Below are positions 1-50,464 of a DNA stretch of 60,520 bases, piece by piece. The notes below the pieces were generated by a model, which was not told the DNA's origin, did no database searches, and worked only from the letters and a program-made list of their open reading frames with translations. Position 1 is the first letter of the stretch. Each line of letters starts with the position of its first letter. The position numbers were made by a program, and so were the translations under genes. The stretch is from Bacteroidota bacterium (GTDB taxonomy: Bacteria; Bacteroidota; Bacteroidia; Chitinophagales; Saprospiraceae), in NCBI GenBank assembly GCA_011321935.1, contig DROJ01000138.1:1-60520 (forward strand), read 5' to 3'.

Positions 1-217
1 AACAATTTCCAAAATAATATAAGCTATCAAATACAACCTCCACTCTCTTGTTTTTATTTTGGTGTATTAAAAAATAAATTAGCGCTCATACTTTATTCTT
101 TTACTTTGCGCAGCATATTTATAAAAATAAAAAAAACTATAACAGCATTCACTGATATAACCCCACCGAATCTATAATTACAATTTTTTTTTAGGCTTTA
201 CCAATATTAAATTGTTT

Positions 218-659
218 GTAACTACTGCAGTGATTCGTAATTAGTTGATTAGTGATTAGTTCGTCAAATCCTTGATAATGTGGTATTTACCAAAAAATAA
301 ATAGTCCGCTAATTACGAATCGAACCACTACTCAGATGGTTCAAACTATAATTTCACTAACCCCCGGTTTCCTGCCTGCCGGTACGTCCGCATGGACAGG
401 CCGGCAACCGGGGGGCAAGCATCACACAAATCTGGGTTTTAACCCAAAAATGTTTACGTTTATTTTGGGTTAAAACACAGACCCCTTGTTGCCTACCCCC
501 GACTAAAGTCGGGGGTTAGTGAAATCATAGCCTGAACTACTTGAGTAGTGGTACAAATCGTAATTAGCTAACCATTTAGTTTTTGGTTAAATGCCACATT
601 ATCAGGGATTTGGAGGACTAATCACTAATCAACTAATTACTAATCACTGCAGTAGTTAC
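218..659. mobile_element. 442-bp MITE-like composite palindrome (GTAACT/AGTTAC termini, TAATCAC-word arms, nested inner hairpins)
   Basis: Termini gtaactactgcag (218-230) and ctgcagtagttac (647-659) are reverse complements, and pairing continues inward for over 100 nt per arm. The core has further hairpins (351-365 with 511-525; 432-480; 496-515). A perfect 8-bp direct repeat AATTGTTT flanks it (210-217 and 660-667). Confidence 0.8.
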
Positions 660-871
660 AATTGTTTTAGGCGCTAAAGTTGTCAACTTTTTAACAGTCG
701 GCAACTTTCCAAAACCACCTCCATTTCTCCTGCTCCCACCGAGTGTTTGTCCGTATTCACCGAAATATCCTGCCTGCTTTTTTTACCATTATTAATTTTG
801 CTGGAAATACAGCATTGAATGTACCCGTGGCACATTGTTTCGGGGCATTTTATGAAAAAAAATCAGGACAG

Positions 872-1438
872 ATGAATAAGTTGATTATTGCTACCGTCTT
901 AATATTTGCCTTTGGCAACATGTACGCGCAGGGCTTTCAGTTCCGTGGTTTTGAATGGGGGACAACAAAAGAAAAAATCAAAAAAAACGAGCGCGCACCC
1001 TTCGTCTTGGAAAAGGACAACCTCTTGCAGTACCGCTCTACTTTGGGCGATTATGATGCCGACCTGGAATATTATTTCAGCATTGACGGTGAACTCATGG
1101 GCGCCAGATATACCGTCCGCAAACGCTACAAAGACCTACAAGACCATTTCAAAGAATTTGATTTCTTTACCGAACTGCTGACGGAAAAATACGGGAAGCC
1201 CGTTGCCATCCAGATTGTCAAAGAAGAGGTGAACGTCAACAATGTCGGATCGCTCATCGCCAGCCTCAAATCCGGGGATTTTGCCCAAGAAATAAAATGG
1301 GACTTGCCCGATACGGCCATCCAACTGACCCTCACCGGGGAAGGGAAAGATGTCATCATGGTTATCAATTACCAGTCTAAAAAATACGGCAAAATGAACC
1401 ACCAATTGAAAAGGGAAATGGTGCTGAAAGATTTGTAG
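872..1438 (+). CDS. hypothetical secreted protein
   Basis: ORF 743-1438 trimmed to the ATG at 872. MNKLIIATVLIFAFGNMYAQ looks like a signal peptide. No domain recognised. Confidence 0.6.
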   Translation: MNKLIIATVLIFAFGNMYAQGFQFRGFEWGTTKEKIKKNERAPFVLEKDNLLQYRSTLGDYDADLEYYFSIDGELMGARYTVRKRYKDLQDHFKEFDFFTELLTEKYGKPVAIQIVKEEVNVNNVGSLIASLKSGDFAQEIKWDLPDTAIQLTLTGEGKDVIMVINYQSKKYGKMNHQLKREMVLKDL

Positions 1439-1535
1439 TGCCGGGCTGAACAGGCAAGGAGGGGCATGGGGACTAAAAAGGCATTATGGTATTATGGTAT
1501 TAAAATATCTGAATGCCTTTTTAATATCTTAGTTT

Positions 1536-1605
1536 TACTTTGACACTTTATATTTTCACTAACGCCGAGTACTCGGGGTTAGTGAAAATATAAAGTGTCA
1601 AAGTA
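1536..1605. repeat. 70-bp palindrome between convergent genes (CACTAAC-word family), likely bidirectional terminator
   Basis: tactttgacactttatattttcactaac...gttagtgaaaatataaagtgtcaaagta. The arms are reverse complements around a ccgagtactcgggg centre. It shares ttcactaac/gttagtgaa with the 351-525 hairpin. Confidence 0.75.
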
Positions 1606-1619
1606 GAATTATAGTTTAA

Positions 1620-2489
1620 TCAATAAAAAACATATTGGTAGTCTGTTAAAAACAGTAACTTCCCTTTTTCATATTCTTTGTACCTGATATAACGGCCGTT
1701 TTTATATACCTTTTCATATCGGTAATCCTTGCCCGTGGTAATGGCCTGCCATAATTTTCCGTTTTTGTATTTATATTCCGTTTTTTCTTTTTCCGCTGTT
1801 TTCAGCCAAACCGTTTCTTTGGTTTTTAATTGGTTTTCGCCGTTGTAATAATAAGTGGTTTCCTTTTCGGCTTTGCCTTTGGCATCGTAATAAGTTGATT
1901 TTATTTTCTTTTTAATAATAGGGTCAAATTGGTGGATGGTTTTGAGTTTAATAGATTTTCCATTGTCGTCAAAAGTATATTCCATCACCCCGAACAGGCT
2001 GTCAATGGCATTATAGTTCATTACTTTGCGGGTCATCAAAGCCCACCTATTATTGGTGGGTTCCCCTTTCCAAAAAGTTTTTTCTTCCAGTGTTTTTCCT
2101 TTTTTGTCAATATATTGGACAGTGCGCAGGTCAATGTCTTTTTCTTTTATTTCCGCTATTTTACGGTCGAGGTGATAAGTGTATTCTACCTTTCGGCTAT
2201 GCTTTTCATTTTTTATTTCTATTTCTTTTAAACGCTGTTTATCGTCGTAATGGTAATAATATATTTCATCATCTAAATTATTGGTCACCCATTCGTCCAA
2301 TTGCCCGTCCCGACGGAATTTATAAACCGCATCTTTGATCGTTTCCTCTGGGCCATATCCATCCGGCGGGAAGGTCGTCCATTCCGTTATTTGTTTGACG
2401 GGTTTGCTGTCTTTGGGAGCTTTGCCAAAATGTTGCGCATTGATGCAAAAGGGAAATAATAAAATAATAAGGAGGATCAGTTTTCTCAT
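1620..2489 (-). CDS. hypothetical secreted repeat protein (Tyr/Lys-rich, YwqK/MORN-like repeats possible)
   Basis: 289-aa ORF with ATG at 2487-2489 and signal peptide MRKLILLIILLFPFCINAQ. Repetitive YYY/NGK motifs. Family not assigned. Confidence 0.6.
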   Translation of the reverse strand: MRKLILLIILLFPFCINAQHFGKAPKDSKPVKQITEWTTFPPDGYGPEETIKDAVYKFRRDGQLDEWVTNNLDDEIYYYHYDDKQRLKEIEIKNEKHSRKVEYTYHLDRKIAEIKEKDIDLRTVQYIDKKGKTLEEKTFWKGEPTNNRWALMTRKVMNYNAIDSLFGVMEYTFDDNGKSIKLKTIHQFDPIIKKKIKSTYYDAKGKAEKETTYYYNGENQLKTKETVWLKTAEKEKTEYKYKNGKLWQAITTGKDYRYEKVYKNGRYIRYKEYEKGKLLFLTDYQYVFY

Positions 2490-2593
2490 TTTAAAATAGT
2501 ATTTTGAACAATTGATTTACAAAAATAATCTAAATTATAAATTTGTCAAAAGTAAGTTTAATTTAGCAAAATGAAATTCGACAATCATCAATT

Positions 2594-3847
2594 ATGAAAT
2601 ATCAACTCACCTTTTTTTTCAGCCTCCTTTTCCTTTTTGTTTTTTCTTGTAAAAACGAAAAAAAAACCGGAGCACAGCAAGATGGAACAAAAAACCATTC
2701 CACTATAAAACAACTCAAAGTACCCTCCCGGCAGGGCGGAGAACCCAACCTCGTCGCCGATAAAAACGGCGGGGTTTATCTTTCTTGGGTTGAGTATGCC
2801 GACGACACCACGGACGTGCTCGTATATTCCAAATTGACTGCAAACGGCTGGGACCAACCCGAAGAAATAGCCCGCGGCAGCGACTGGTTTGTCAACTGGG
2901 CAGACTTCCCTTCTCTGGTTATTTACGACGACGGGGCAATGGCCGCTCATTGGCTGCAAATAAGCGCAGCGGGCACCTATGACTACGACGTGATGGTTTC
3001 ACAAAAAACAAATGCCGCAAGCGGTTGGGGCAAACCATTCAAACTCAACCAAGACGGAGTGGCCGCCGAGCATGGTTTTGTGTCCATGATACCCGCCGCC
3101 GAAGGGAAAATATTCGCCGCCTGGCTCGACGGGCGCAACACCAAATCGGGCGGCGACGGAGACGGCGGGCATGGCCACGGCCACGGCGGCGCAATGACCA
3201 TCCGGGCTGCTTTTTTCGACCAAACGGGCCGCCTCTCCAACGATACCGAACTCGACAACAGAACCTGCGACTGCTGCCAAACTTCGGCAGTCGGCACTTC
3301 CGACGGTGGCGTTTTGGTGGCCTACCGCGACCGCTCCGAGGACGAAGTACGGGACATTTATTTTACAAAAATGAAAGATGGAAAATGGAGCGCACCGCAG
3401 CCCGTTTTTGCCGACAACTGGAAAATAACGGGCTGCCCCGTCAACGGCCCTTCCCTCGCCGCAACAGGCGGAAAGGCCGTAATCGCTTGGTTTACAGCCG
3501 CTAACAAATCGCCAAAAGCCAACATCGCCTTCTCCAACGACAACGGGGATACCTTTGGCCTGCCCATCCGTTTCGACGACGGCGAACCCGCCGGAAGGAT
3601 AGATGTGCTGATGCTGAACGCCAACGAAGCCCTCGTCAGTTGGCTGGAAAATACGGAGGACGGCGCCGAAATAAGGGCCAAAAAAATCAAGGGCAACGGC
3701 CAAATGGAGGCCTCCTTTTTGGTGGCCAAAACCTCCCCCTCCCGCGCAAGCGGCTTCCCGAGGATGGTAGCCGCCAATGGAAAAATAATCTTTGCCTGGA
3801 CAGGCGTGGAAGGCGACAGCACTTTCATAAAATCGGGCGCCCTTTGA
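2594..3847 (+). CDS. lipoprotein, BNR/Asp-box sialidase-like beta-propeller (tentative)
   Basis: 417-aa ORF with a lipoprotein-type signal (LFLFVFSC). One clear Asp-box (SNDNGDTF) and a propeller-like repeat pattern. Contains a Gly/His tract GGDGDGGHGHGHGG. Confidence 0.55.
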   Translation: MKYQLTFFFSLLFLFVFSCKNEKKTGAQQDGTKNHSTIKQLKVPSRQGGEPNLVADKNGGVYLSWVEYADDTTDVLVYSKLTANGWDQPEEIARGSDWFVNWADFPSLVIYDDGAMAAHWLQISAAGTYDYDVMVSQKTNAASGWGKPFKLNQDGVAAEHGFVSMIPAAEGKIFAAWLDGRNTKSGGDGDGGHGHGHGGAMTIRAAFFDQTGRLSNDTELDNRTCDCCQTSAVGTSDGGVLVAYRDRSEDEVRDIYFTKMKDGKWSAPQPVFADNWKITGCPVNGPSLAATGGKAVIAWFTAANKSPKANIAFSNDNGDTFGLPIRFDDGEPAGRIDVLMLNANEALVSWLENTEDGAEIRAKKIKGNGQMEASFLVAKTSPSRASGFPRMVAANGKIIFAWTGVEGDSTFIKSGAL

Positions 3848-3970
3848 GGCGATGCCTTTGCGCGTGGTTAAGCGGGCAGAAAGGCGTTGACTCAAAAAAC
3901 TCGGCTGGAATGGGGAACAAATTGAGTTGACGCCTTTCAAGCCGCTTTCGTGAAATCGGCAGCTTTGAGG

Positions 3971-4133
3971 TGAATTTTTTCGGATTTTTCGAGGGATTCA
4001 CATCCCTTGCCAAGAAATGCCGTCCCTGCGGGACTAGGATTTGGTGTCATCCATCCTAGTCCCGCAGGGACGGCATTTCCTAGCGAGGGATATGAATCCC
4101 TCGAAAAACCGAAAAAACTCACGAAAAAATTCA
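3971..4133. repeat. ~160-bp imperfect palindrome between convergent genes
   Basis: tgaattttttcgg...gccgtccctgcgggactaggat is mirrored by atcctagtcccgcagggacggc...cgaaaaaattca. The outermost right arm contains the stop codon (4131-4133) of the adhesin gene. Confidence 0.75.
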
Positions 4134-7100
4134 CTTCAAAATCACCACATCCCCTTCCCGAAATACCTCCTTTTCCACGCCACAAAAACGCACCCTTGCT
4201 TTCAGGTACCAGGCATAAACGCCCGGGTTCATCGTTTTGCCCTTAAACCCGCCGTCCCAACCATTTGCCGGCTGGCCGGCGAAAAAAACATGCGCCCCCC
4301 AGCGGTTGAAAACATGCAGCTCAAACGACTGAATATCAATGCCTTGCGCCGCATAAACTTGAAATTTGTCATTGACGCCGTCCCCGTTTGGCGAGAAGGC
4401 ATTGGGGATGTAAAAATAAGAATCCGGCTGCCCTTCCGCCCATTTTACGGTCGCTTCAAGCGCCTCCGTTGCGCATTCGTCGCTCACTTCAAAATGGTAA
4501 ATCCCCGCATCTTCCACGGGCATCCAAGCCTCGGACGAGCCATCCTCCCAACGCCAATTTACTGCCCCGGCATGGCTCAAAACGACGGGGCGGACGGTCG
4601 TTTGCGGGTCGTCGCAGGGCAGGGCATAGTCTTCCACCAAAACATCGAGCGGCGGTTTTTCAAGCACTTCCACGGCTTGCATTTCGGCGCAGCCGTTGGC
4701 GTCCTCCACGGCTATTTCGTAAATGCCGCTTTTCAAATTGGCAAAAACAGTTTGCGCCTGAAAGGCCCCTCCGCCGATAGCGCAACGGAAAGGCGGCGTC
4801 CCCGAAAGCGGAACCACCTCGATAGTCCCGTCCCCTTCGTCCGGGCAACTTTCGCTCGGCTGCAGCTCAAAAGACAGCGCCGGAAAAGCGGCCACACTGA
4901 TAAAAACCAGCGAATCGCAGCCCGCCTGATTGTTCAATTCCAAAACCATTTCGTCGCCGGGCAGGAGGCTAAAGCCCTGATAATCAAGGGTATCGCTTTC
5001 GCAAATATTCAATTCCAAGAAAGTGCTGTCCGCCTGCAAAATGCCTACCGACACCACCACCGTCGAATCGCAGCCCCGGAAAGAAGGCAGCACAAATTCC
5101 CTCGTTTCGCCTGCGGCAATTTCGGTGTTGTTGAACAAAATGCTCTCCCCGCCGCAAGCTTCAAATTGCAAAGTGGAAGGTTCGACAACTATCTCCTCGA
5201 CCGACACCACCACCGTCGAATCGCAGCCCAGAAAAGAGGGCAGCACAAATTCCCTCGTTTCGCCTGCGGCAATTTCGGTGTTGTTGAACAAAATATTTTC
5301 GCCGCCGCAGGCGGCAAATTGCAAAGCCGTTTCGATGGCTTGAAGGCAGGGACTATCCAGCAAAAAATCAACGACGGAAGTATCGCCGCAGCCTTCGATG
5401 GAAATATTTTCACTAAAAATAATCGGCGTATAATAGGCCGGCAGGCCGTTGAGGTCAATGCCCAATTGGTAAGCCCCGCCGGGCATTTCACCAAAAAAAT
5501 ACTGGCCGTTTTCGTTGCTGAAAGTATCGGCCAAAGCGGCCCCGTTTTCGGTCAGCAAAACAGGGATGCCGCTCAACAGGCTGTCGGCTGCGTCAACCTC
5601 CCCGTTGCCGTTGAGGTCAATCCAAACGTGGCCGCTCACCTCGCCCTGTTCGGGCAAAATGGAAATGGAGACGGCCTCCGAAACCGTTTCGCAGCCATAG
5701 ATACTGGTCAGGTGGACTTGGTAATCCCCCGTTTCGGTGGCCTCGTAATTGGCTGCGTTGCCCTCCGGCGCAGCGATGGGCGAGCCGTTCAGAAGCCATT
5801 GGTAATCAGCGACTTCGGGCAGGTCGGGCAGGCATATTTCTTTGCTTTCGCAAGCCGTGAAACAGCCCGAAACGAGGTTGCCCAAGCCCGGCGCATTGTG
5901 TATTTCTATCTCGTTGCTCTTGGCTGTGCAGCCAAAAGAATTGGTCGCCAAAACGAGGTAAGTGCCTCCGGCAAATGCACTGATCGAGGTGCCCGTTTGC
6001 CCCGTGTTCCAGAGATAATCATTTGCAGGGTCGGCATTTTCCACAAAAAAATCGGCCTCGCCGCCCGCACACAAGGGGCCCGGCGGATCGGACGAAATAG
6101 AGACCTCCGAGGGCAGGGCATGGACGGAAACCGGAAAGGGTCCGACTACCGCTGTGCAGCCCGAAACCACCTCGGTCACAGTGACCGAAAATTCGTGGTT
6201 GCCGACAGGCAGCAGGCCGCTGCCCTCCTCCGTCAGTGCCAATTGGCCGCCCGTTGTGCCGTCGGGCCACTGATAAAAATAACGCGGGTTGCCGTTCATT
6301 TCCAGATAGACCTCGTTGCCCTCGCAGGTCGAATAGCTGTTCTCGTGATAGGCGGTTGGCTGGCCAAATTCGTTGAGTTCGACTGCCCGGATGAGGGCAA
6401 CAGGGGCGGGCAAAACTTCCAATCCAACGGCAGGCGGGCTGTATTCACAACCTTTTGAATCGGTCAAAGTCACTTCGTAAATGCCTGCTTCAGAGGTAGT
6501 TATGCCCGAACCCGTTCCTCCGCTCGACCATGCCCAAGCCACTCCTCCGGGCGGTGCCTGAAAGCTGGCCTGCGTGCCTTCGCAAATGGGCGCAGGGTCG
6601 TCGGGGGTGATGTTGCCCGAGAGGTCATTGGCTTCGATGGACACGCTGGAGGTGAATGTTTGGCGGCAGCCGTAAATACTTTCGGCGGTCAGTGCCACCT
6701 CAAATTGCCCAGCAAAAGGGTAGGCGTGGTAGGTGTTTTCTTTTTGCGAAAAATTGGCGTCGCCGCTCCCTGCGTCGCCAAAATCCCAGCTAAAAACGGC
6801 CACGTCGGCGGGTGCGTCGGCCTCGAAGTGCAAGGCCGTTGCGGCGCAAAGAGCAGCGGGCGCACCGAAGCTGACCGCAGGCGGCGCATGGATGGTTATT
6901 TCTTTTGAAAATACGGCTGTGCAGCCCTCCGACGAAGTGGCCAACAGGGTGACATTATAGCTGCCCGGCGCAGAAAAAACGTGCTCGGGATGCTGCAAAC
7001 CGGAGGCATTGGCCGAGCCGCTTGCCGGGTCATCGAAGTCCCAATGCCAGCCCGAAATACTGGTGTTGGGCAGGTAATTGGAAACGTCCGTAAATCGGAC

Positions 7101-7977
7101 GGCAAGCCCGGTACAACTGCCTTCCACCTCGAATGCGGCCTGCAGGGGAACGACGATGTCGGCATGTTTTCCGATATAACAGGTTGGTGGACTGCCGTCC
7201 AAATTGGGAGTTTCGATAGCGAGAATGACTGAAAAAAAACCGGGATGGCTAAAGTTGTGGCTTGGATGTTCTTCAACGGAACTGCCATCCTGGAACTGCC
7301 ATTGCCAAGTGCCCGGAATGGCATTTACCGATAGGTTGTTGAATTGAAATTCATTGCAGGTCGTATTGTTCCACGTAAAATCCGCCGTTCCCTGCGGGTT
7401 GCAGGTGCTTGGTGAGGATACCACACATTGCCCGTTTTCACAATGCCCGCCCGCTGCTTCACAGTCAGGAATGTATATCGAATTGGATTGCCCGGTGCAG
7501 CCGTTTTCGTTGGTCACTACCACATAATAAATGCCGCTCTCATTGACGGCAAGAGTGGCTTGGCCGCTGCCCGTTTTAATGCCGTCCTTGTACCATTGGT
7601 ACAGGTAGCCGTTGCCTGTTTGCGTAGCGTAAATAGTAGCGCCTGCGCTTCCCGGGCATAAGCCTCCAACGAAAGAAGGAGCTGAAATAAAAACCTCCGG
7701 TTTCTCTTTTTCGAGGATGGTAAAATTGGTTTTGGAAGAGCAGCCGTTGCCGTCGTCGGCCTCCAGCACATAGCTCCCCGCAGTCAGTTGCGGAGCAGCT
7801 AAGTGGCTGACAACCAGTCCGTTTTGGTTCGTCCATTCATAGCTCTGGTAGCTTTGCAGGGTACTCACTTCGCTGGTTTCGCTTTCGCAAATAAAGACCG
7901 GGAAGTCAACTTCTGGCGCCTCCGGCGAACTTATGTTTACCTCAAAATCGGCCTCGCTTCCGCAGCCGTTCAGGTGG
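4131..7977 (-). CDS. C-terminal fragment of split adhesin (PKD/Ig-like repeats plus gliding-motility-associated C-terminal domain, CHU_C / T9SS type B)
   Basis: The track ORF 4131-7868 starts at a GTG. The same frame stays open to 7977 (IHLNGCGSEADFEVNISSPEAPEVDF...). The C-terminus YIPNAFSPNGDGVNDKFQV...FNRWG...WDG is the CHU_C signature. There is no signal peptide or credible start. Confidence 0.8.
5048..5327. repeat. 153-bp (51-codon) tandem duplication inside the adhesin CDS
   Basis: ccgacaccaccaccgtcgaatcgcagccc... occurs at 5048 and again at 5201. It encodes LQF(A/E)ACGGE(N/S)ILFNNTEIAAGETREFVLPSF(L/R)GCDSTVVVSV twice with very few differences. Confidence 0.85.
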
Positions 7978-8093
7978 ATAGTGGTACAAATCGTAATTAA
8001 CTAACCATTTAGTTTTTTGTTAAATGCCACATTATCAGGGATTTGGCGGACTAATCACTAGTCAACTAATTACTAATCACTGCAATAGTTGCA
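7978..8093. mobile_element. 116-bp half-copy (one arm) of the TAATCAC-word MITE, inserted in the adhesin gene
   Basis: tagtggtacaaatcgtaattaactaaccatttagttttttgttaaatgccacattatcagggatttggcggactaatcactagtcaactaattactaatcactgcaatagttgca is about 90 percent identical to the right arm at 547-659. It supplies the premature stop at 8066-8068 (read-through ...TATIAVISN*). Confidence 0.8.
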
Positions 8094-11000
8094 GTACCTG
8101 CCTGCTGCCAAAAAACCTCCACCTGCGCCGTTCCCTGCCCCCCGGTGATGGCCCCCGCCTGCGGCGGGCTGACCGACCATTCGTAATTTATATTTTCATA
8201 AAAACCGGTTTCGTAAAATGCGGAATTTTCGCGGCAAAGGGAGGCATCGCCGCTGATTTCGAGCCCGGGCAGCGGGGCGGGGTAAACGATAAACGACGGA
8301 GATTGGCAGCCCGGGCTGTTCCAGTCTTCTTGTGAGACAATGAGGGCATAAGGTGGCGAACTTGCCCATTTTACATTGATGGAGCGGCCTGTTTTTTCGT
8401 AAAAATCAATGCCGTTCCTGATGAACCAAGAATAGGTCGCATTTTCCAAATTGGAGGAAACTTGGTAGTTATAGGCCTGTCCGGGGCAGATGTTCATTTC
8501 GCCCAAAATGGTATCGAGGGGAGGGGGCAGCGCAAAGACTTCGACCTGCAGCCCCAACTCCCCGTTGCAGCTTTCCCCTGCGGGAAATGCGCGGACGGAA
8601 TAAGTGCCGGCACCGAAATCAAAGGTCGGATGGATGCCCGTAACGGGGGAGTCGGAAGCCCACATTTCCACCCCGTGCACGTCGTAAATAAACCAATCGG
8701 CTTCCACAAATGGGTAGCCCGAAACTTGGGAGTGGGTGAAGGAAGGACTGCTGCCCTCGCATATTTCTATCGGCCCGTTTATCAGCGTGGGCGGTCTCAT
8801 CTGCAGGGGCAGTTCGCCATTTCCGGCGCAGCCGAGGAAGCAGTTTTGGTAGCTTATTTTTATCAGGCCGGAGGCATTGTTGCCGTCGAAATCGCCCCAT
8901 CGGACGCTGATTTTCGGCGTGCCCTGTCCCTCCAAAATAAGCCCAAAAGAAGGCACTTCCCATTGATAATCAGCGCCTTGTACGGCTTCTATAAAATATT
9001 CCGTTTCAGTATTTGGGCAGACGATGACCTGCCCTTCGATGTCCGTTTGGTTGCTGATGATGGAGATTTTCTGCCGCACTGTTTTCGGGCAAATGTTGCC
9101 GGTGCAGGCCGATACTTGCAGGCTGACATCGCCCGAACTTCCGCCGTTCCATTGGATGGTCACGAAGTCGTCGGCCTGCCCGCCGCCGCTGATTACCGAG
9201 CCGTTCGGGCTGTTGCCCCACTCGTAATTTCCGCAAACAACATTGCTGCGGTAGGTCGCCGTATCGCCCTCGCAAACGGGGCCGAGGCAAAGGATTTCGG
9301 GTATCTCCGCATCCGATACCTCGACCCTAACGGAGGTGGTATCGCTGCAATAGCAGCCGTTGCGGGCGATGAGTTTCACTTCGTAAATGCCCGGTTCGTA
9401 AAAGGTGTGCAGCGCGTCTTTGACCAAAGAAACTGTGCCGTCGCCAAAGTCCCAAATGAAAGAACTGCTTGCCGTGCTGTTGTTGGTAAATTGGACTGTT
9501 TCGGCCTTGCAGAGATCAATGATATTATTGACAGCAGCAGGCACGGAGGTGAAAACGGCTTTTGGTTCTTTTAAAATTTCGATGCAGCGTTGGCCTTCTT
9601 GTTGGCAGTCGGGGGGGCAGGTGAGGGTGATGTATTCGGTGGTGGTTTCGCCGTTGCTGAGGTTGGTGTAGTTGATTTGGTATGGACCGGCAGGAAGTTC
9701 AGTGAATGGAACGAGGGAACCTGGCCCTTGATATTGCAGATATACCGTATCGCTTCTACTAAAACCTGTTTCTAAATTGATTAGGTTTATAAAAAATGGA
9801 TGTGACGGTGAACCACTGATAATTGGAGAAAAATCATTATTGTGGAGTCCCCGAAAAAAGATAATTCCGTCTTCTTCTCCGCATGAAGAAGGGCCGACTG
9901 AATTGGCAAAGGTTTCATAACGGGCTTCTGTGGTTATTTCAACCGAGCATGATTTGGTATTGCCCGTTGCATCCCTGATTTGATATTCATATACACCGAC
10001 ATTTAGAGAAGGTACAACATGGATCTCTCCACTATAAAACTGAGACCAGGACAAGCCGCCGTTTTCTGAAATTTCTATCCCTCCGGCATATGAGTTTCCT
10101 ATTATGAATGAGGCGCCAAGCTGATTTGTTGAATCAATGACCTGTGAAACTTGCCCACAATCCACCTGCAAATAATCCTTATCATCCAAGATAGAAACCT
10201 TGACCTCGCCGCTGCCTGCCTCGCCCCATTCCACGGTTACTTCGTTGCCATTGGCCGTGTAATCAACGCTGCCGTTTACCTCCCAAATGACGGGCATCTG
10301 CTCTGGGTTTTCCACCGAGTAGGTGACGGTGGAATTTTCGCAGACCTTTTCGCAGCTTTCGGGAGAGGAGGGGCAGAGGGAGGTGGATTGGATGGGGAGT
10401 ACAAGGTCGTTTGAAAAAATATACGGCTCGCTGTATTCCCATCCACAGGCGGCGGCATTGACGGCTATCCGAATATGTGTCCAGTTCAGTTCATCGCACC
10501 TTATTAATAAGGTATCGGAACTTGAACCCCCGACCAAGCATTCATTTTGCCCATTTTCGAGGTCAACATAGTTGGTGCCGTCGGCGGAGACCTGCCATTG
10601 GTACTCCGTTAACAAGCCTGCGGGGTCGTTGATCGGCTGCTCCAGTTCTGCGACAAATAGCATTTCTTCGCCCGGCGAAAAACAGCCGTCAAAATAAAAA
10701 TCAGAAACGTAAACATCGGTGTTGGTAAATCCGCAGTCGCAGGGGTCGGAGGCGTTTGGAATGCCGTCGTTGTCAATGTCGGAATCAATTTCATTCGCTA
10801 TTCCATCGCCGTCAAAATCACAGATAGCTCCACATGCGTCAGGGACGCAAGGTTCTAAATCATCTGGGTCAAAAAGCGGATCAGAGGCCAATACACCCGA
10901 GAAATAGCCATCGTTGTCAATGTCACCTCCGCCCGAGCAGCCCTGAGCGACAGTAAAGCAAGCACTCCCATTACAGCCCTGCGCATCCACCGTTTCGACG

Positions 11001-11236
11001 CAGTAAGTCCCCGGTGAAAAAATAGAAATAGCCCAAGGGGAAGCGCTGTTTTCAAATTCCCCGTCGGTGCTGCTCCAAGTGGTGGACGGATAGTATGTAT
11101 TCAGTCCGAGTAGCTGATAAGGGGCGTCGGGGCAGTAGCCTGTTGCTCCAATAATCACCGGGTCGCATTGCCCCACCAATAGAGCAGGCAGCCCGACCAT
11201 TGCAATCAACCAAAGAAAAAGCGCTCGTAAAACCAT
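8066..11236 (-). CDS. N-terminal fragment of split adhesin (signal peptide, thrombospondin-type-3-like Asp repeats, Ig/PKD-like modules)
   Basis: ORF 8066-11245, with ATG at 11234-11236 giving MVLRALFLWLIAMVGLPALLVGQ. Recurrent module ends of the form V.V.W...G...V.V....C. The last 9 codons and the stop are encoded by the inserted repeat. No sorting domain. Confidence 0.8.
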   Translation of the reverse strand: MVLRALFLWLIAMVGLPALLVGQCDPVIIGATGYCPDAPYQLLGLNTYYPSTTWSSTDGEFENSASPWAISIFSPGTYCVETVDAQGCNGSACFTVAQGCSGGGDIDNDGYFSGVLASDPLFDPDDLEPCVPDACGAICDFDGDGIANEIDSDIDNDGIPNASDPCDCGFTNTDVYVSDFYFDGCFSPGEEMLFVAELEQPINDPAGLLTEYQWQVSADGTNYVDLENGQNECLVGGSSSDTLLIRCDELNWTHIRIAVNAAACGWEYSEPYIFSNDLVLPIQSTSLCPSSPESCEKVCENSTVTYSVENPEQMPVIWEVNGSVDYTANGNEVTVEWGEAGSGEVKVSILDDKDYLQVDCGQVSQVIDSTNQLGASFIIGNSYAGGIEISENGGLSWSQFYSGEIHVVPSLNVGVYEYQIRDATGNTKSCSVEITTEARYETFANSVGPSSCGEEDGIIFFRGLHNNDFSPIISGSPSHPFFINLINLETGFSRSDTVYLQYQGPGSLVPFTELPAGPYQINYTNLSNGETTTEYITLTCPPDCQQEGQRCIEILKEPKAVFTSVPAAVNNIIDLCKAETVQFTNNSTASSSFIWDFGDGTVSLVKDALHTFYEPGIYEVKLIARNGCYCSDTTSVRVEVSDAEIPEILCLGPVCEGDTATYRSNVVCGNYEWGNSPNGSVISGGGQADDFVTIQWNGGSSGDVSLQVSACTGNICPKTVRQKISIISNQTDIEGQVIVCPNTETEYFIEAVQGADYQWEVPSFGLILEGQGTPKISVRWGDFDGNNASGLIKISYQNCFLGCAGNGELPLQMRPPTLINGPIEICEGSSPSFTHSQVSGYPFVEADWFIYDVHGVEMWASDSPVTGIHPTFDFGAGTYSVRAFPAGESCNGELGLQVEVFALPPPLDTILGEMNICPGQAYNYQVSSNLENATYSWFIRNGIDFYEKTGRSINVKWASSPPYALIVSQEDWNSPGCQSPSFIVYPAPLPGLEISGDASLCRENSAFYETGFYENINYEWSVSPPQAGAITGGQGTAQVEVFWQQAGTATIAVISN

Positions 11237-11452
11237 AGGAAACAAGGATTAAATATTTGTAAAAATAGAAGGGGAGGCCTCGCCTGCGGCGAGAAATAAG
11301 GGCGAGAGAAAAGGATAGTTTTTGTTGGAAAGGGAGATTGGAGGTGGCGTCAAAATCAGCACTGCCACCTTTTATATTATAAAATGGAATGTTTAACGAG
11401 GGTCAAAAAACGAGCCAGAGGGGTATCCTTAAACGTCCGGATTTTTTGGTCA

Positions 11453-11514
11453 GTCTCCTTGCCCTTCCGAAAGAGGGGGAATTAATTCCCCCTCTTTCGG
11501 AAGGGCAAGGAGAC
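11453..11514. repeat. 62-bp perfect-stem palindrome, GGGAAT family
   Basis: gtctccttgcccttccgaaagagggggaattaattccccctctttcggaagggcaaggagac. The same family occurs at 12896-12967, 13068-13107, 13207-13259, 16159-16202, 60108-60140 and 60213-60252. Confidence 0.85.
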
Positions 11515-11566
11515 GGGCTGAAATGTTCCGACTTTGGATGATTGAAATGATACCAAGAGGGGGCAT

Positions 11567-11600
11567 AAAAAAAGCGCAAGCGGAGCAGTTCCGTTTGCGC
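11567..11600 (-). terminator. rho-independent terminator after tRNA-Leu
   Basis: On the minus strand, the stem gcgcaa...ttgcgc is followed by a T7 run, directly 3' of the tRNA. Confidence 0.65.
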
Positions 11601-11605
11601 TTAGG

Positions 11606-11939
11606 TGCCCGGAGCGGGAATCGAACCCGCACGGCCATTACTGGCCACAGGATTTTCGTACCATCTACAACTTTCGCTGCCCCCGCTCCGATCGCTATCG
11701 GGATCGGGTTTGTGGTCTGGACTTTCTCTTCGCCTTGCCTTTCGGTTTAGGCGCCTCCCGTCAAGTCTCTACACCTTTCCCCCCGAGTACTCGGGGGAAC
11801 TTGGCTCGGGATTGCCATCCCGACTCAGGAGTCGGGAAAGGTTTCCCCGAATTTGAGAGGTTCTACTTCCCGGATTTCCCCGGGAGCACTCAAATTGATT
11901 GTTTAAGTCCTGCGTGTCTACCAATTCCACCACCCGGGC
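11606..11939 (-). tRNA. tRNA-Leu: tRNA-Leu(UAA), split by a group I intron (exons 11939-11905 and 11656-11606)
   Basis: The 35-nt 5' exon is GCCCGGGUGGUGGAAUUGGUAGACACGCAGGACUU. The 51-nt 3' exon is AAAAUCCUGUGGCCAGUAAUGGCCGUGCGGGUUCGAUUCCCGCUCCGGGCA. Joined, they give an 86-nt type II tRNA with anticodon loop CUUAAAA, a long variable arm, a GUUCGAUUC T-loop and a 7-bp acceptor stem. Confidence 0.9.
11657..11904 (-). ncRNA. group I intron (248 nt, no ORF) in the anticodon loop of tRNA-Leu(UAA)
   Basis: It starts AAACAAUCAAUUUGAGUG and ends GGUACG (terminal G). Exon ACUU|AAA can pair with intron UUUGAGU, giving a U.G pair at the 5' splice site. Core strings CUCAAAUUCGGGGAAACC, GGCAAUCCCGAGCCAAG, GGUGUAGAGACUUGACGGGAG, AGAGAAAGUCCA and GCAGCGAAAGUUGU match my recollection of the Anabaena tRNA-Leu intron core. 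Confidence 0.85.
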
Positions 11940-11993
11940 GGGTCGTGGTTTTGTACCGCTAAGGTAAAAAAAAAGCCCTCTCTTCAGAAGGCT

Positions 11994-12069
<76 letters not shown>

Positions 12070-12101
12070 ATTATTTTTACCGCTCTTCTTTTGAGCGGCT
12101 G

Positions 12102-12109
12102 CAAATATA
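12102..12109 (-). promoter_or_regulatory. candidate Bacteroidota -7 box (TAnnTTTG) for the tRNA-Gly/tRNA-Leu unit
   Basis: The minus strand reads TATATTTG about 33 nt upstream of the tRNA-Gly 5' end. This is a consensus match only. Confidence 0.3.
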
Positions 12110-12221
12110 CGGTTGTTTGAAATAATATGTCAAAATTTTTCGGGGTACTTTTTTTGAAAATTTTTCCACAAGCACCTGCCGTGCAAAAGGTACAAAGCAG
12201 GGGCGGGTATAGTTCCCGTTT

Positions 12222-12845
12222 TTATTTTTTTAGTTCGGCCAATACATCTTCCGAAGACAAAATGTCAGCCCCCATTTTTTTTAGTTTTATCAGGGCTTCG
12301 CCCAAATTTTGTTGGTCGGGGCCTTTGGTGGCATCTTCGATGATGGCTGTTTGATAGCCCATTTCAATTGCATCGGCGGCGGTGTTCACGAGGGCATTGC
12401 TTTCGTTGAGACCTGCGAGGTACAGCTTTTTTATTTTGTTTTTTTGAAAATGGGCGTTCAGGCCCGTATCCCGTTTTTTGTTTTTACCAAAAAAAGCAGA
12501 GTGGGGGAGGCATTGGTGGTCAGTGCCCATCAAGGCCGTAAAGTGGATTTTTTCTTGGTTCAAGTTCATCGGATGCTCTGCGCCGAAGCTGCCTTTTATG
12601 CAGAAATAATGTTTCAATAAAATCTTTTCGCCCATCAGGTCGAGTACCTGCCCGGGGCGACGCCAGGGGTAGTTGGCAACGAACATTTTGTGATTTGCCG
12701 GCAGGCTGAAATTGGCGGCGGCAAGGTGGCCGAAATGTGGCAACAGGCGGTTGATGACGGGGATTACCTTTTCGCTTTCGGGTATCTCCGCAGCACCGAG
12801 GGGCAACAGGTCAACTTGTAGGCCGATGAATAGGAGTGCTTTCAT
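12222..12845 (-). CDS. isochorismatase/nicotinamidase (PncA)-fold protein lacking the canonical catalytic residues
   Basis: ORF trimmed to ATG 12843-12845 (MKALLFIGLQVD...). It is collinear with PncA (ALL..LQ.D, PANH..F, SAFF, GL.....V..A.DA...GY), but the Asp/Lys/Cys triad positions read Gly/Met/Ala. Confidence 0.65.
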   Translation of the reverse strand: MKALLFIGLQVDLLPLGAAEIPESEKVIPVINRLLPHFGHLAAANFSLPANHKMFVANYPWRRPGQVLDLMGEKILLKHYFCIKGSFGAEHPMNLNQEKIHFTALMGTDHQCLPHSAFFGKNKKRDTGLNAHFQKNKIKKLYLAGLNESNALVNTAADAIEMGYQTAIIEDATKGPDQQNLGEALIKLKKMGADILSSEDVLAELKK

Positions 12846-12895
12846 TGGTAAGCTGTTCAAATAATAGAATGATAAAACCTTGCTCCACTTTTGAG

Positions 12896-13356
12896 CCCCC
12901 GTCTCCGTGCCCTTCCGAAAGAGGGGGAATTTATTCCCCCTCTTTCGGAAGGGCACGGAGACGGGGGCTTGGGGTTCGATATTTTTTCTAAAAAACTAAT
13001 TTCGGGTCAATTTCAAAAGCCGATCTTCGCCCCTCTCGCCGCCGATTTTTCGCGAAGCGCAGCCAGGAATAAATTCCCCCTCTTTCGGAAGGGCACGGAG
13101 ACGGGGGTTTGGATTCGGTGTTTTTTCCAAAAAAACTGATTTTTGATTAAATTCAAAAGCCGATTTTCGCCCCTCTCGCCGCCGATTTTTCGCGAAGCGC
13201 AGCCAGGAGAGAGAGGGGGAATAAATTCCCCCTCTTTCGGAAGGGCACGGAGACGGGGGTTTGGATTCGGTGTTTTTTCAAAAAAAACTGATTTTTGATT
13301 AAATTCAAAAGCCGATCTTCGCCCCTCTCGCCGCCGATTTTTCGCGAAGCGCAGCC
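12896..13356. repeat. 3-unit tandem array (140-170 bp units): GGGAAT-family hairpin + spacer + copy of the last 52 nt of ribH
   Basis: tcaaaagccgat(c/t)ttcgcccctctcgccgccgatttttcgcgaagcgcagcc occurs at 13013-13064, 13153-13204 and 13305-13356. The last copy is the real ribH 3' end. Each copy is preceded by ...ggaagggcacggagacggggg(t/c)ttgg(a/g)ttcgg.... Confidence 0.85.
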
Positions 13357-13820
13357 ATGCGGATGGCACTCACTGCGGCCTCCACGCCTTTGTTGCCGTG
13401 CTTGCCGCCTGCCCGGTCGAGTGCCTGTTGGTGGGTGTTGGGGGTGAGCAATCCAAAAATGCAGGGGATGCCCAATGCCAGTCCCAAACCGGTGAGGCCA
13501 GTGGCCACGGCATGGTTGATATACTCGTCGTGCTTGGTCTCGCCTTTGATGACTGCGCCGAGGCAGATGAGGGCGTTGAGCCTTTTGCCGGAGGCGAGTG
13601 TTTTTGCACCGAAGGGCAGTTCAAAAGCCCCCGGTACTTGGGCAACAAATATGTTTTCCTCTTTTGCGCCATGCTTGACGAGCGTTTCAAAACAGCCTTC
13701 GTAAAGGGCATGGGTGATGTCGGCGTTCCAGTCGGAAACGACAATCCCGAAGCGCATGTCTTCGGCGGAAGGGATGTTTTTTTCGTTGTAATCGGAAAGG
13801 TTTTTTAATGCGGAAGCCAT
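13305..13820 (-). CDS. ribH: 6,7-dimethyl-8-ribityllumazine synthase
   Basis: ORF trimmed to ATG 13818-13820. RFGIVVSDWNADIT, QVPGAFELP, LICLGAVIKGETKHDEYI and AGGKHGNKGVEAA are typical RibH motifs. The C-terminal 16 codons lie in the tandem repeat. Confidence 0.9.
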   Translation of the reverse strand: MASALKNLSDYNEKNIPSAEDMRFGIVVSDWNADITHALYEGCFETLVKHGAKEENIFVAQVPGAFELPFGAKTLASGKRLNALICLGAVIKGETKHDEYINHAVATGLTGLGLALGIPCIFGLLTPNTHQQALDRAGGKHGNKGVEAAVSAIRMAALREKSAARGAKIGF

Positions 13821-16158: not shown

Positions 16159-16202
16159 CGTCTCCATGCCCTTCCAAAAGGGTGGGAATTTATTCCCACC
16201 CC
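16159..16202. repeat. GGGAAT-family hairpin (gggtgggaat variant) containing the stop codon of the downstream CDS
   Basis: ctccatgcccttccaaaagggtgggaatttattcccaccc (16162-16201) is identical over 40 nt to 60213-60252. The stop (16190-16192) sits in the palindrome centre. Confidence 0.85.
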
Positions 16203-19200
16203 TCAGGATCATTCCTCCCTGATCGGTCAATATGGTTGTTGCCTGCCTGCTGCGTACCGAGCATGTAAACATCCTGGATGTTGACATGTGGCGGACGCGT
16301 CGCGATGAAATAAATGGCCTCGGCCACATCGCTCGCTTTCAGCGGCTGGAAATTGTCGTAAACCTGCGCCGCTTTTTCCTTGTCGCCATCGAAGCGCACC
16401 CGCGCAAATTCCGTTTCTTCGACATGGCCGGGTGCTACTTGGCTCACCCTGATATTGTGTTTATGGAGGTCGAGGCGCATGGATTGGGTAAGCGAATCAA
16501 CGGCGGCCTTGGTGGCGCAGTAAACATTGCCGCCGGGATAGACCTCTTTGCCAGCGCTCGAAGCGATGTTGATGATGTGCCCCCGTTTGCGCTCCACCAT
16601 GTGCGGGGCAATGGCGCGGGTCATGTATAGCAGGCCTTTTACATTGGTGTCTATCATGGTGTCCCAATCGTCGGGCTTGCCCTCGTGGATGGGCGAAAGC
16701 CCTTTGGACAGGCCGGCATTATTGATGAGGATGTCAATTTCTTTCCATTCTTCGGGAAGGTTTTCGATGGCTTTTTGGGTGGCCCCGGCCTCCCTCACAT
16801 CGAAAGAAAGGGAAAGGATGTCGGCCTTGTATTCGCTGGCGTATTTTTCCGAAATGGCCTGCAAACGCTCGTCCCTCCTGCCCGTGATGATGACCCGGTA
16901 GCCGTTTTTCGCAAATATCTCGGCGGTGGCTTTTCCGATGCCCGAAGTGGCGCCGGTTATCAAAACGGTTTTTGTCTCAACTGGCGCCGTTTCTGCTTCC
17001 TCCGCTGTCGGCTCTGCTGCGGCAATGGGGGCGTTGGCAGGGGCATCCCCTTCCAGATCTGCAGCCATTAATTTCTCCAGTTCAGGGTCGTTGAGGAGGT
17101 CGTTAAAAGCGGCTTCTTTTTCTGCAACCTCCTCTGTTTCATCGGCCCTTTGGGCCAAATTCAAACTTTCCAGTTCAGGGTGGTTGAGGAGGTCGTTAAT
17201 AGCAGTTTCTTTTTCTGCAATCTCCTCTGTTTCATCGGCCCTTTGGGCCAAATCCAAACTTTCCAGTTCTGGGTCATCCGCCGGAGAAGGGGCATCGGCT
17301 GTTGCTTCCGTTCCGGCAGTTTTTTCATGGTAGCCAAAGGCGAGGTCGTTCTGTTCCGTTTTCAGTTCGGGGTTGATCTCGATGGCTTTGGCATAATGCT
17401 CGGCGGCTTTTTCCTTTTCGCCCAATTGGTGGTAAACCAGTGCGAGGTCATAGTTTGCAAAGGGGTGGTTGGGCAGCAGGACGAGGGTTTTATGGTAGTG
17501 TTTCACCGATTTTTCCGGCTCGCCCATCCGTTCGTTGAGGAGGTTGGCGAGCATGTACTGGGCATCGGAGTTGAGGCTGTTTTGCCGGATGGCTTTCCTG
17601 AAATAAGCGGCCGTCTTTTTTTCTTCTCCCTGAAAATGTTCGGCCATCAGCAGGCCGAGGCGGTAGTACACTTCGGGGTATTCAGGTTGCAGCGCAGCCA
17701 CTTGCTCGAAGCATTTTTTAGCGCCCTCGAAGTCCTGCTGGTTTTCGGCCAGTTCGGCCATGAGGAACCAGGCGTCGGGGTGTTCGTTGTCAATTTTCAG
17801 CAGTGCCTCCAATTGCGTTTTTGCCCCGCCGTAATCGGTGGCGTAACGGGCGAGGGAGTAGGCAAGGTAGTACCGCAGGGTGGTGTCGCCGGGCTTGTTT
17901 TTTACGGCTTCGCCTAAATAATCAATGCCTGCTTGGGTCTGTTTGTTGCCGAACAAATTGACGGCATGTTCCAAGGTTTCTTCGGGGGTATCGCCTGTTT
18001 CGGGCGACAGCCCGGCCTCTTCTTCGTCCAGCAAATCCAAGATCACTTCATCCTCTCCGACTGGGATGCCGTCCAGGTTTTCAACTTCGGTTTCCGCTTT
18101 CGGGACGATGTTTTCATCTTCCTCAAAAAGCGAATCGAGGTCAAAATCATCCGGGTTGTCGGGGTCGTCGCCCACAAAGTGGAACTCCTCTTTTGCTTCG
18201 TAGCCTTCAATGCCTTCCTCTGCCAGCACCTCGTCGAGGATGGACATCAGTTCTTCGTTTTCGCCGTCTATTTTTTCCATTTCTTTTGGTGAAAATTCAA
18301 TATCCTGCTGTGTTTTGTCTTCCTGCACAGGGGCAGAATGGATGCCCTCGTCTTCCTCTGAGTTGTCGTTCATTACTTGCGCCAAAAGAGAGTCGTCCGA
18401 GGAGTTGACCAAGTCTTGTTTGTCGTTTTCGTCCAATAGATCCATGCCCGGGATGCCGCTCAAAATTTCATCGGTTATTTCTTCGTCCACTTCCAGTTCT
18501 TCCTCCAATTTTTTCAGGTCATAGGTCTGGTCAATTTCTGAATTTTCAGCGATCAGTTCGTCCGAAGAGTTTTCGATCATTTCGACCAAAGAATGCTCGC
18601 TGGCCGCAGGAGCGTTTTTTTCTTCATTTGAAATGGCAGCTTCCAAAATGGCTGCCCCTTCGGGGACGGTTTCCTTTTCTTCCCCGGCCGCATCTCTTTC
18701 TTCCCCGGCTGCTTCCATTTCATTTTCCTTTTTCAAACTTTCTTTGAATGCCTCCAGATCGCTAAAGCCTGCCCCTCTTAAAAAGCGCAAAAACTCTCCA
18801 ACATCTGCCGAAATTTCTTTGGTAATGGCAATCTGTTCTTCCAGTGCCTCGTCGTCTGGTCGGTTGCGTTTTTCTTTGCGCAGGGCGAGGTATTTGTCCT
18901 GCCAGTAATTCATGTACTGGATGATGTCGCCCACCCGGTCGAAGACAGTGGACACCTCTTTTTTCGTTCCGTCCTCGTTTGTTCCCACGCCATTGGCCAC
19001 CACCGTTGCCAATTGCCCGGCACCCTCCCATTTATGCGCAGCCTGCAGGATGCCGTTCATGCAGCCGCCCGATTTCAAAAAATTGTCGGTGACCAAAAGG
19101 ACAATGGAACTGCCTGCCGGGACATCCAAATTTCCGATCTGTTCGGCCATGTCTGCGTCCGATTTTTCTATGGTTGCCGCCTCGTCCCCTGAATGCCGGA

Positions 19201-19290: not shown

Positions 19291-19582
19291 CAGAGTTTGA
19301 AAAACCAGAGTTTGAGAGAGTGAGAGTTTGAGAGTTTGAGAACAGTATTAAGAAGGGACTTTTTGGTACTCGTTCGAGAGGCCAATTAGGGTTTGAGAGA
19401 GTTTGAGAGAGTTTGAGAGAGTTTGAGAATTTGAGAGCAGTAACGAGAAGGGACTTTTTGGTACTCGTTCGAGAGGTCTAAAAGTCCCTTCTCGCTACTG
19501 CTCTCAAACTCTCAAACTCTCAAACTCTCACTCTCTCAAACTCTCTCAAACTCTCTCAAACTCTCACTCTCTCAAACTCTGG
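19291..19582. repeat. ~290-bp hairpin element with GAGAGTTTGAGAG word arms
   Basis: Arms of (gagagtttgagag)n at 19291-19345 and 19391-19435 face (ctctcaaactctc)n at 19499-19582. There is an internal 31-nt direct repeat agaagggactttttggtactcgttcgagagg at 19351 and 19446. The 3' end of the TlpA-like CDS lies inside. Confidence 0.8.
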
Positions 19583-20904: not shown

Positions 20905-20928
20905 TGTGCCAGTTGGATGGTGATTAGT

Positions 20929-20994
20929 GGATTAGTGGATTAGTGATTAGTGGATCAGTTATCAGTGATTAGTGGATTAGTGATTAGTGATTAG
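20929..20994. repeat. GTGATTAG word tandem tract
   Basis: gtgattagtggattagtggattagtgattagtggatcagttatcagtgattagtggattagtgattagtgattag. Confidence 0.8.
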
Positions 20995-21057
20995 GCCACC
21001 AAAAAAAGTCTGTTGTTGGGGCGGCCCGACACATATGAAAATTTTAAAACCCAAAAG

Positions 21058-50402: not shown

Positions 50403-50464
50403 GCTCAATGATCGGCGGCAAAGGAAAGTAAATTTTAGGAAATAAAACCAATTGAAAAGGGGCG

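Follow-up and report, generated by a model that had tools for sequence, protein, structure and literature searches.

Is the large surface protein encoded in this stretch of DNA the product of two adjacent genes, or has a single gene been cut in two by a small repeat element? The question is raised by two open reading frames (ORFs) on the minus strand of contig DROJ01000138.1 (assembly GCA_011321935.1), a 60,520-nt stretch of DNA from a Saprospiraceae-like bacterium that is referred to as the window. The upstream ORF (8066-11245, with an ATG at 11236) encodes 1,056 amino acids and the downstream ORF (4131-7868) encodes 1,245 amino acids. A first-pass annotation of the window had proposed that these ORFs are complementary halves of a type IX secretion system (T9SS) adhesin gene of about 2,300 codons, that the gene was cut by a 116-bp half-copy of a MITE (miniature inverted-repeat transposable element), and that the element might excise to turn the gene back on. 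To judge from homologous proteins, the two ORFs are the halves of one predicted T9SS type-B cargo gene whose restored length is 2,332 codons. We consider it likely that a 102-bp AT-rich noncoding unit inserted in codon 1051 and duplicated the pentamer ACTAT, giving rise to an insertional pseudogene.

T9SS cargo requires a Sec signal peptide to reach the periplasm and a C-terminal domain to pass the outer-membrane translocon. In the present allele a signal-like N-terminus and a sorting domain lie on separate ORFs and are united only once the insert is removed. The N-terminus of the upstream ORF (MVLRALFLWLIAMVGLPALLVGQ) has a basic residue followed by a hydrophobic stretch, and residues 1-23 (11168-11236, minus strand) resemble a signal peptide as judged by eye. 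Pfam searches identified three PKD_6 stretches and one PKD_4 domain in this ORF, and the sorting domain was absent. The downstream ORF contains PKD/PKD_4, Ig_7 and SdrD_B domains and a C-terminal CHU_C domain, and is without a signal peptide. CHU_C in Pfam corresponds to TIGR04131, the type-B T9SS sorting domain. Both profiles matched at the extreme C-terminus (4197-4409, minus strand; residues 1190-1260 of the 4131-7976 translation), with scores of 58.3 bits for CHU_C (cut-off 27, 8.7e-16) and 44.4 bits for TIGR04131 (cut-off 35, 1.4e-11). The proposed complementarity of 8066-11236 and 4131-7868 was thus borne out. The first in-frame canonical start codon of the downstream half is the GTG at 7868. 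The frame stays open 5′ of this codon through 7977, as had been noted, and on to 8000, which lies within the insert. The G+C content of the gene halves is 52% and 55%, that of the insert is 33%, and the window average is 49%.

A search with the fused protein identified six full-length homologues (P0001-P0006) of 1,982-2,968 amino acids with 33-45% identity. Each of them combines PKD_6, PKD and CHU_C domains and has one local alignment with the fused protein that takes in 76-88% of the query, and a MAFFT alignment showed that all six are collinear across the junction. Synteny with the closest homologue (P0001, 45% identity) was absent, and for this reason these proteins are termed homologues rather than orthologues. 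We also searched 1.84 billion representatives exhaustively with phmmer, using a 303-residue segment centered on the restored junction, and obtained 6,203 matches. By our own count, 114 of the best 150 matches span the junction in one stretch, and many junction-spanning matches align query residues 1-303 to an equal length in the match. About twenty others of the best 150 end at query residues 153-159 or begin at 152-155, indicating that a domain border lies just past the junction. The insert itself falls about 13 residues short of the end of a PKD_6 domain and not between modules. In the restored sequence this domain (7938-8263, minus strand) occupies residues 992-1064 and matches profile positions 6-80 of 82, with the break after residue 1051, whereas the truncated ORF covers only positions 6-66. 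With homologues that are single across the junction and a PKD_6 domain that is broken, the claim of one large T9SS gene cut by a repeat copy is upheld. A word-index protein search with the 303-residue junction query gave no match and is uninformative, since it also missed the window's own halves even though they are in the collection; a first word-index search was likewise without these halves (P0104, P0105/P0106), though the cluster look-up has them.

In its architecture the restored gene is like the T9SS cargo with type-B C-terminal domains (SprB-like, PKD-repeat adhesins; PMC9143113), in that the product would be a large and repetitive protein of Ig/PKD fold, with a signal peptide at the N-terminus and TIGR04131/CHU_C at the C-terminus. 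An adhesive function of the present protein is assumed from this architecture, and no PorP/SprF-like gene adjoins the interrupted gene. Other Por_Secre_tail/CHU_C proteins are encoded nearby.

The limits of the insert follow from the junction, which reads ...GCA ACTAT|TGCAGTG...GTACC|ACTAT CCA.... The left copy of the direct repeat ACTAT (8085-8089, minus strand) is native target sequence and the right copy (7978-7982, minus strand) is the second copy. Between them lie 102 nt (7983-8084, minus strand) that contain stop codons in all six frames. This sequence is identical at 98 of 102 positions (96%) to a copy 7.4 kb away, here called unit R, and at 87 of 102 to a further copy, unit L. Deletion of 107 nt, consisting of the 102 nt and one ACTAT, gave AGTATIHLNGCG, with zero gaps relative to the six homologues. 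The restored junction (...VFWQQAGTATIHLNGCGSE...) is exactly of homologue length and displays the homologues' A-[TS]-[ILV]-x-[LV] strand pattern, and its G-to-C spacing equals that of the internal repeat VTIQWNGGSSGDVSLQVSAC at residue 692. Against a profile of the six homologues the 107-nt deletion scored 300.8 bits, compared with 294.0 bits for a 116-nt deletion, 291.9 bits for 119 nt and 292.6-295.4 bits for other in-frame choices. Similarly, the PKD_6 profile was reached to 80/82 with the 107-nt deletion and to 77/82 with the 116-nt deletion. The module-end pattern V.V.W...G...(I/V).(L/V)....C that had been said to recur upstream occurs nowhere in its literal form. A relaxed form occurs at residue 692 and, at the junction, only after the 107-nt deletion; the thought behind the pattern is sound, but it favors the 107-nt over the 116-nt limits. 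These comparisons show an insert of 102 nt (7983-8084) with a predicted 5-bp duplication of ACTAT, and limits of 7978-8093, as originally drawn, are 9 nt too wide.

With these limits the insertion point falls between the second and third bases of codon 1051. The native sequence 5′ of it (8085-11236, minus strand) comprises codons 1-1050 and the first two bases of codon 1051 and carries the PKD_6 and PKD_4 domains. The native 3′ part (4131-7977, minus strand) begins with the remaining third base of that codon, runs on to the stop codon and carries the PKD/PKD_4, Ig_7, SdrD_B and sorting domains. The element supplies five codons (AVISN) and the TAG stop codon at 8066-8068 to the upstream ORF, instead of the nine codons (TATIAVISN*) that had been assigned to it. 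The nucleotide sequence across the restored junction, as it would stand in an excised allele, is GCAACTATCCACCTG, and the empty-site allele would read ...CAGCAGGCAGGTACTGCAACTATCCACCTGAACGGCTGCGG... under the 102 + 5 limits and ...GGTACCCTGAAC or ...GGTACTCACCTG under other limits. The junction peptide of the restored protein is QQAGTATIHLNGCGSEADFEVNISSPEAPEVDFPVFICESETSEVSTLQSYQSYEW, and the stretch that spans the junction is …QQAGTATIHLNGCGSE….

In the mechanism that we favor, the AT-rich 102-bp unit would have entered codon 1051 of the 2,332-codon gene and duplicated its 5-bp target ACTAT. The stop codons that the unit carries in every frame would end translation after five foreign codons (AVISN*). 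The N-terminal 1,051 residues would keep the signal peptide, lose the sorting domain and end in a broken last PKD_6 domain, and the C-terminal 1,281 codons would keep the sorting domain and have neither a signal peptide nor a natural start. With the two signals on separate ORFs, neither half could take the Sec-then-T9SS route, which would make the gene an insertional pseudogene. The present allele is most likely a null allele, and we infer loss of function from the reading frames.

The best surviving alternative is the one that the first-pass annotation put forward. It holds that the insert is one arm of 116 nt standing alone, half of a palindromic MITE of 442 bp, with TGCAACTAT and the second ACTAT as parts of the arm and without a target duplication. 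Such an arm could have stayed behind when the core and the opposite arm were lost, or it could have inserted as a fragment, and the empty site would read ...GGTACTGCAACTATCCACCTG.... The homology on which this proposal was built is well supported, as the insert aligns to the palindrome's right arm (546-660) with 95% identity over 115 nt (E 6e-48) and to its left arm with 85%, and a 30-mer core of the insert has three occurrences in the window compared with 0 expected by chance. Moreover, the arm homology is readable out to 8093 (TG-AACTA-TGCAG), and deletion of 116 nt likewise restores a single ORF, in this case of 2,329 codons. However, the 116-nt deletion leaves a 3-residue gap relative to all six homologues, within the beta-strand pattern A[TS][ILV]x[LV], and its score on the homologue profile is 6.8 bits lower, with shorter PKD_6 coverage. 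Both flanking 5-mers are ACTAT in the gene and ACTAC at the other locus, as target duplications would give, and a secondary deletion would not be expected to restore the exact homologue length. In addition, the 442-bp element is itself a mosaic with an inner hairpin that exists independently. The homologues are at most 45% identical to the fused protein and the closest is not syntenic, which counts against the narrower limits in that a lineage-specific difference of three residues is conceivable in principle. Weighing these points, we consider the half-copy origin unlikely.

The composite intergenic palindrome at 216-661 (446 bp) has units L and R as its outer arms and a DNA fold of -153 kcal/mol (z -22.8). 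The hairpin at its center (TTTCACTAACCCCCG.../...CGGGGGTTAGTGAAA) is also present by itself at another locus of this organism (L013, 15651-15714), and related forms are found at 4563-4750 of another locus of this organism (L001, 4563-4615 and 4728-4750). To judge by these occurrences, 216-661 is a mosaic that nests several repeat families and is not one element, although 218-659 had been described as a single MITE. Each arm contains the same 102-nt type of unit and the same type of flank, so that what had been called a half-copy is better described as a unit with its own 5-bp duplication. The inner hairpin belongs to a family of about 60 nt that includes a CCCCCGGATGCCTGCCTGCCGG variant, and at 216-661 its two arms (350-384 and 495-527) have been pushed apart by further inserted palindromes.

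Unit L (226-326, plus strand, 101 nt) is flanked by ACTAC at 221-225 and 327-331 and has a perfect 13-bp subterminal inverted repeat (GATTCGTAATTAG/CTAATTACGAATC; 0/2000 shuffles). Unit R (550-651, minus strand, 102 nt), the closest copy to the insert, is also flanked by ACTAC (GTAGT on the plus strand, 545-549 and 652-656). The surroundings are TGCA-ACTAT...ACTAT-CCA in the gene and TGTA-ACTAC...ACTAC-TCA for both L and R, with the orientation alike in all three. The flanking pentamers are the same within a locus and differ between loci (T in the gene versus C at 216-661), as target duplication predicts, and the near-identical outer flanks suggest a preferred target. We infer that the unit is flanked by a target duplication and prefers TGYA-ACTAY-YCA sites. 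Templated microhomology insertion from the 216-661 locus was considered and rejected, as both 5-mers in the gene are ACTAT and donor-type flanks would be ACTAC. We also compared the unit with IS200/IS605-derived elements, which are marked by subterminal hairpins at both ends and by insertion 3′ of a fixed 4-5-nt target without duplication. That each of the three copies follows the same 5-mer in a constant orientation would agree with such fixed-target insertion; however, the small hairpins are not conserved between copies and the 5-mer recurs at the far end with the locus-specific T or C, which is a better fit to duplication.

Bacterial MITEs that disrupt genes include Chunjie in a phosphate-uptake operon of Geobacter and the Correia element of Neisseria, and further insertions affect the mcy genes of Anabaena, avrA of Ralstonia, hopX1 of Pseudomonas and pyrE, such that gene inactivation by MITEs is already well documented (PMC10969869). 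By the criteria given in the same source, the unit is MITE-like both in being short (<500 bp), noncoding and AT-rich and in having a flanking direct repeat (PMC10969869). As with the gene-inactivating MITEs, the unit is about 100 bp and its three copies in the available sequence, two of them intergenic, have short direct-repeat flanks, and it landed in an ORF and truncated it, as MITEs occasionally do. Unlike those MITEs, it has clear inverted repeats in one copy of the three, it is without a stable stem-loop when solo, and two of its copies make up the outer arms of a larger palindrome. In Bacteroidota, Porphyromonas gingivalis has MITEs (BrickBuilt and others; PMC4596501) that are likewise non-autonomous and contain internal short tandem repeats, to which the four GATTAGT-like heptamers at the 5′ end of the present unit may be compared; in contrast to the unit, BrickBuilt is much larger and has a minisatellite core, and no likeness in sequence would be expected. 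Like the REP/REPIN/BIME mosaics of proteobacteria, the unit occurs as an inverted doublet and as a singlet, nested with other palindromic repeats in intergenic mosaics. REP units are 20-40-nt imperfect palindromes without target duplications, and their singlets are regarded as immobile. In contrast, the inserted form here is the singlet, the unit is 102 nt, non-palindromic and flanked by 5-bp repeats, and no RAYT gene was seen. The insert is better read as a complete small MITE-like unit than as half of a larger MITE, and it would have been moved in trans by a putative transposase.

Several observations weigh against this classification. Only three copies of the unit, from two loci, are present in the roughly 85 kb available for the organism, and L and R may represent one event copied by palindrome formation, so that the target preference is drawn from two or three events. 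The inverted repeats, for which the MITE criterion is 4-30 bp at the termini, have decayed in unit R (8 bp, 153/2000 shuffles) and in the insert (7 bp, 421/2000 shuffles) to lengths that are not significant, and the solo unit folds weakly (-13.1 kcal/mol, z -2.5), short of the stable stem-loop that is a feature of MITEs. No larger element with the ends of the unit was found in the window or in the fetched loci, the ORFs of which were not screened for transposase genes. In exact scans the central 23-mer of the unit was unmatched in GTDB species genomes and in JGI metagenomes, and its 5′-end 22-mer was unmatched in JGI metagenomes.

About 17 kb more of the organism beyond the window contained no further unit copy, Rfam gave no match at the insert, and no element within the insert was called by a scan of 7700-8300 for terminators and for promoters of the sigma-70 type, as opposed to the Bacteroidota type. 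The 23-mer from the 5′ core (GTAATTAGTTGAYTAGTGATTAG) was found in GTDB species genomes at at least seven loci in metagenome-assembled genomes (MAGs) of Saprospiraceae, other Bacteroidota, Chloroflexia and Wolfebacteria. Since these loci have only a 27-34-nt GATTAG module in common and their flanks are unrelated, they are of no help in defining the ends of the unit. Literature searches on the GATTAG motif and on the run and project accessions found no paper.

The 5′ module itself, (TGCA)GTGATTAGTAATTAGTTGAYTAGTGATTAG, lies at 8051-8084, 226-261 and 618-651 of the window. It was also found at 6041-6073 of locus L005, 690-720 of L008 and 6708-6741 of L010, and in L006, L007, L009 and L011, and is identical over 27-34 nt among at least seven of the MAG loci from the groups just named. 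The module consists of stop-T-stop heptamers, so that each of the three frames contains stops. Its reverse complement is free of G and, in one Saprospiraceae MAG, lies with its end 4-11 nt upstream of the start codons of three genes, which encode a GT4 glycosyltransferase, a DinB-like protein and a protein of unknown kind. The spread of the module may be due to convergence, to a role as leader or insulator, or to a micro-module that is spreading. In the window, a tandem array of GATTAGT(G) heptamers and octamers occupies 20920-20995, and the reverse complement of this array has its end 16 nt upstream of the start codon (ATG, 20904) of a 446-amino acid AhpC/redoxin-like gene on the minus strand.

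The insertion is present in two sequencing runs. A contig from an ENA assembly of a hydrothermal-vent metagenome (k127_70124, run SRR4453772) corresponds to window positions 1-13115 with three mismatches and contains the same insertion. A Logan contig from run SRR7787185 matches 11482-8060 exactly, including the copy-specific GACT variant, and breaks off after 25 nt of the unit, as expected of a contig that runs into a repeat. As the same junction was recovered from two runs by two assemblers, and as the flanks join to the exact homologue length, the insertion is not an assembly artefact. No fused (intact) protein was found in 90% protein clusters, and no intact allele was found among the assemblies that cover the site in the two sequencing runs. 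A stop codon would arise from 3.9% of the single substitutions that are possible in the restored ORF, and there is no further stop in 6,996 nt, which places neutral divergence since inactivation below about 1.1% (95%, substitutions only). This bound is lower than the 3.9% difference between the insert and unit R, indicating that R was not the donor or that the event is recent relative to the insert-R divergence. The earlier suggestion of a recent inactivation fits these values, and we take the inactivation to be probably recent.

Whether the insertion could be reversed is a separate matter. A reversible switch had been suggested, in which precise excision, either transposase-mediated or by slippage between the ACTAT repeats, would toggle the surface protein in the population. 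In the broadest form of this idea, the unit would belong to an undescribed family of sequence-targeted (TGYA-ACTAY), orientation-specific, exactly excising mini-elements of Saprospiraceae-like bacteria, and the insertion would be a reversible switch of a T9SS surface protein. Surface adhesins are typical targets of phase variation, removal of the unit and one ACTAT restores a perfect 2,332-codon ORF, and both halves are otherwise undamaged. A precedent would be IS492 (IS110 family) of Pseudoalteromonas atlantica, which inserts site-specifically at a 5-bp repeat, excises from it precisely and in this way switches exopolysaccharide production. The likeness would lie in the 5-bp repeat at both ends, the sequence-preferring insertion and the exact restoration on excision. 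However, IS492 is a 1.2-kb autonomous element that encodes its own recombinase, whereas no recombinase was identified here and excision is hypothetical. Exact restorability is a property of every in-frame target duplication and thus is not evidence of excision, and a recent event explains the intact halves equally well. Furthermore, the insertion is found in every assembly that covers the site, the clusters contain no fused protein, and 5-bp repeats that are 102 nt apart without a strong hairpin are a poor substrate for slippage. We consider a switch very improbable, and the broader family of excising elements no less so. The event is an ordinary kind of gene inactivation, with no sign of a switch in the assemblies and protein clusters.

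A natural and functional two-gene arrangement, or a chimera assembled through the repeat, is highly improbable. Both halves are listed as separate proteins in public databases, and the Logan contig breaks inside the element. However, the break is within PKD_6 and not between domains, the downstream half has no signal peptide or native start, and the homologues are single genes, as are the 114 junction-spanning matches among the best 150, which makes a natural two-gene arrangement untenable. In a chimera it would be impossible for the flanks to join to exact homologue length, and the same junction came from two assemblers on two runs with copy-specific bases in the insert. Ribosome bypass of the 107 nt in the manner of phage T4 gene 60, with ACU-AUU as the take-off site and the repeated ACU-AUC as the landing site, would allow the full protein to be made and could use the matching codons that the duplication yields, but it is barely credible, as such codons arise automatically with any in-frame target duplication, the gap is twice that of T4, the stop codon is five codons past the putative take-off codons rather than adjacent, there is no conserved take-off hairpin, and the unit is also present in intergenic DNA.

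The insertional pseudogene matters chiefly for annotation. Public databases enter the two halves of one predicted pseudogene as separate proteins, which would be read as a periplasmic PKD protein and as a T9SS cargo without a signal peptide, and counts of T9SS cargo and adhesins from this MAG would be off by one gene each way. What is new is modest: a corrected boundary, a pseudogene listed as two proteins, and the definition of a small and poorly sampled repeat unit of an uncultured hydrothermal-vent Saprospiraceae-like bacterium (102 nt, 5-bp duplication, likely target motif).

Two further features were observed in and beside the 3′ half of the interrupted gene. Two 127-nt repeats (5047-5173 and 5200-5326) are 92% identical with a period of 153 nt and encode 51-residue modules (...LQFAACGGENILFNNTEIAAGETREFVLPSF...). 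Of the three positions at which the ENA assembly departs from the window, two fall in this region (5160-5161), and a Logan contig end is also there; the local sequence may be assembly-sensitive. Directly 3′ of the stop codon of the surface-protein gene is a palindrome (3976-4117), the arms of which gave inverted matches to the Acido-Lenti-1 RNA (RF01687) at 3990-4035 (plus strand) and 4058-4103 (minus strand), with scores of 37.5 and 38.6 compared with a gathering score of 37. This palindrome may be a terminator-like repeat instead of an Acido-Lenti-1 small RNA.

Long intergenic palindromes are common in the window (19307-19581, 24581-24642, 50438-50800, 52781-52935, 56458-56668 and 58881-58990). 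Several of their arms are tandem 7-10-nt repeats (CTCTCAAA, AATGGYTR, CAACGCAAGG), one pair has 109-nt arms that are 99% complementary, and the palindrome at 58881-58990 consists of two diverged copies of the 5′ half of the unit. We also found three tandem copies of a 140-nt repeat at 12926-13357, which are 86-99% identical and contain the GGGGGAATWWATTCCCCC hairpin family. This family occurs in addition at 11453-11517, 16160-16224 and 60089-60252, and the ENA contig ends within 12926-13357.

A tRNA-Leu(UAA) gene (11603-11939, minus strand) lies about 370 nt upstream of the surface-protein gene, beside a tRNA-Gly(GCC) gene (11994-12069). A group I intron of 248 nt (11657-11904) splits the gene within the anticodon, directly after U34, and matched the full Rfam Intron_gpI model with 49.8 bits compared with a gathering score of 50 (E 2e-10). 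This is the classic position of the cyanobacterial and plastid tRNA-Leu(UAA) intron, here in a Bacteroidota-like genome, and a search of the available literature found no paper that joins a tRNA-Leu(UAA) group I intron with Bacteroidota. ARAGORN misses the intact gene and calls the joined exons as an 88-nt tRNA-Leu(taa).

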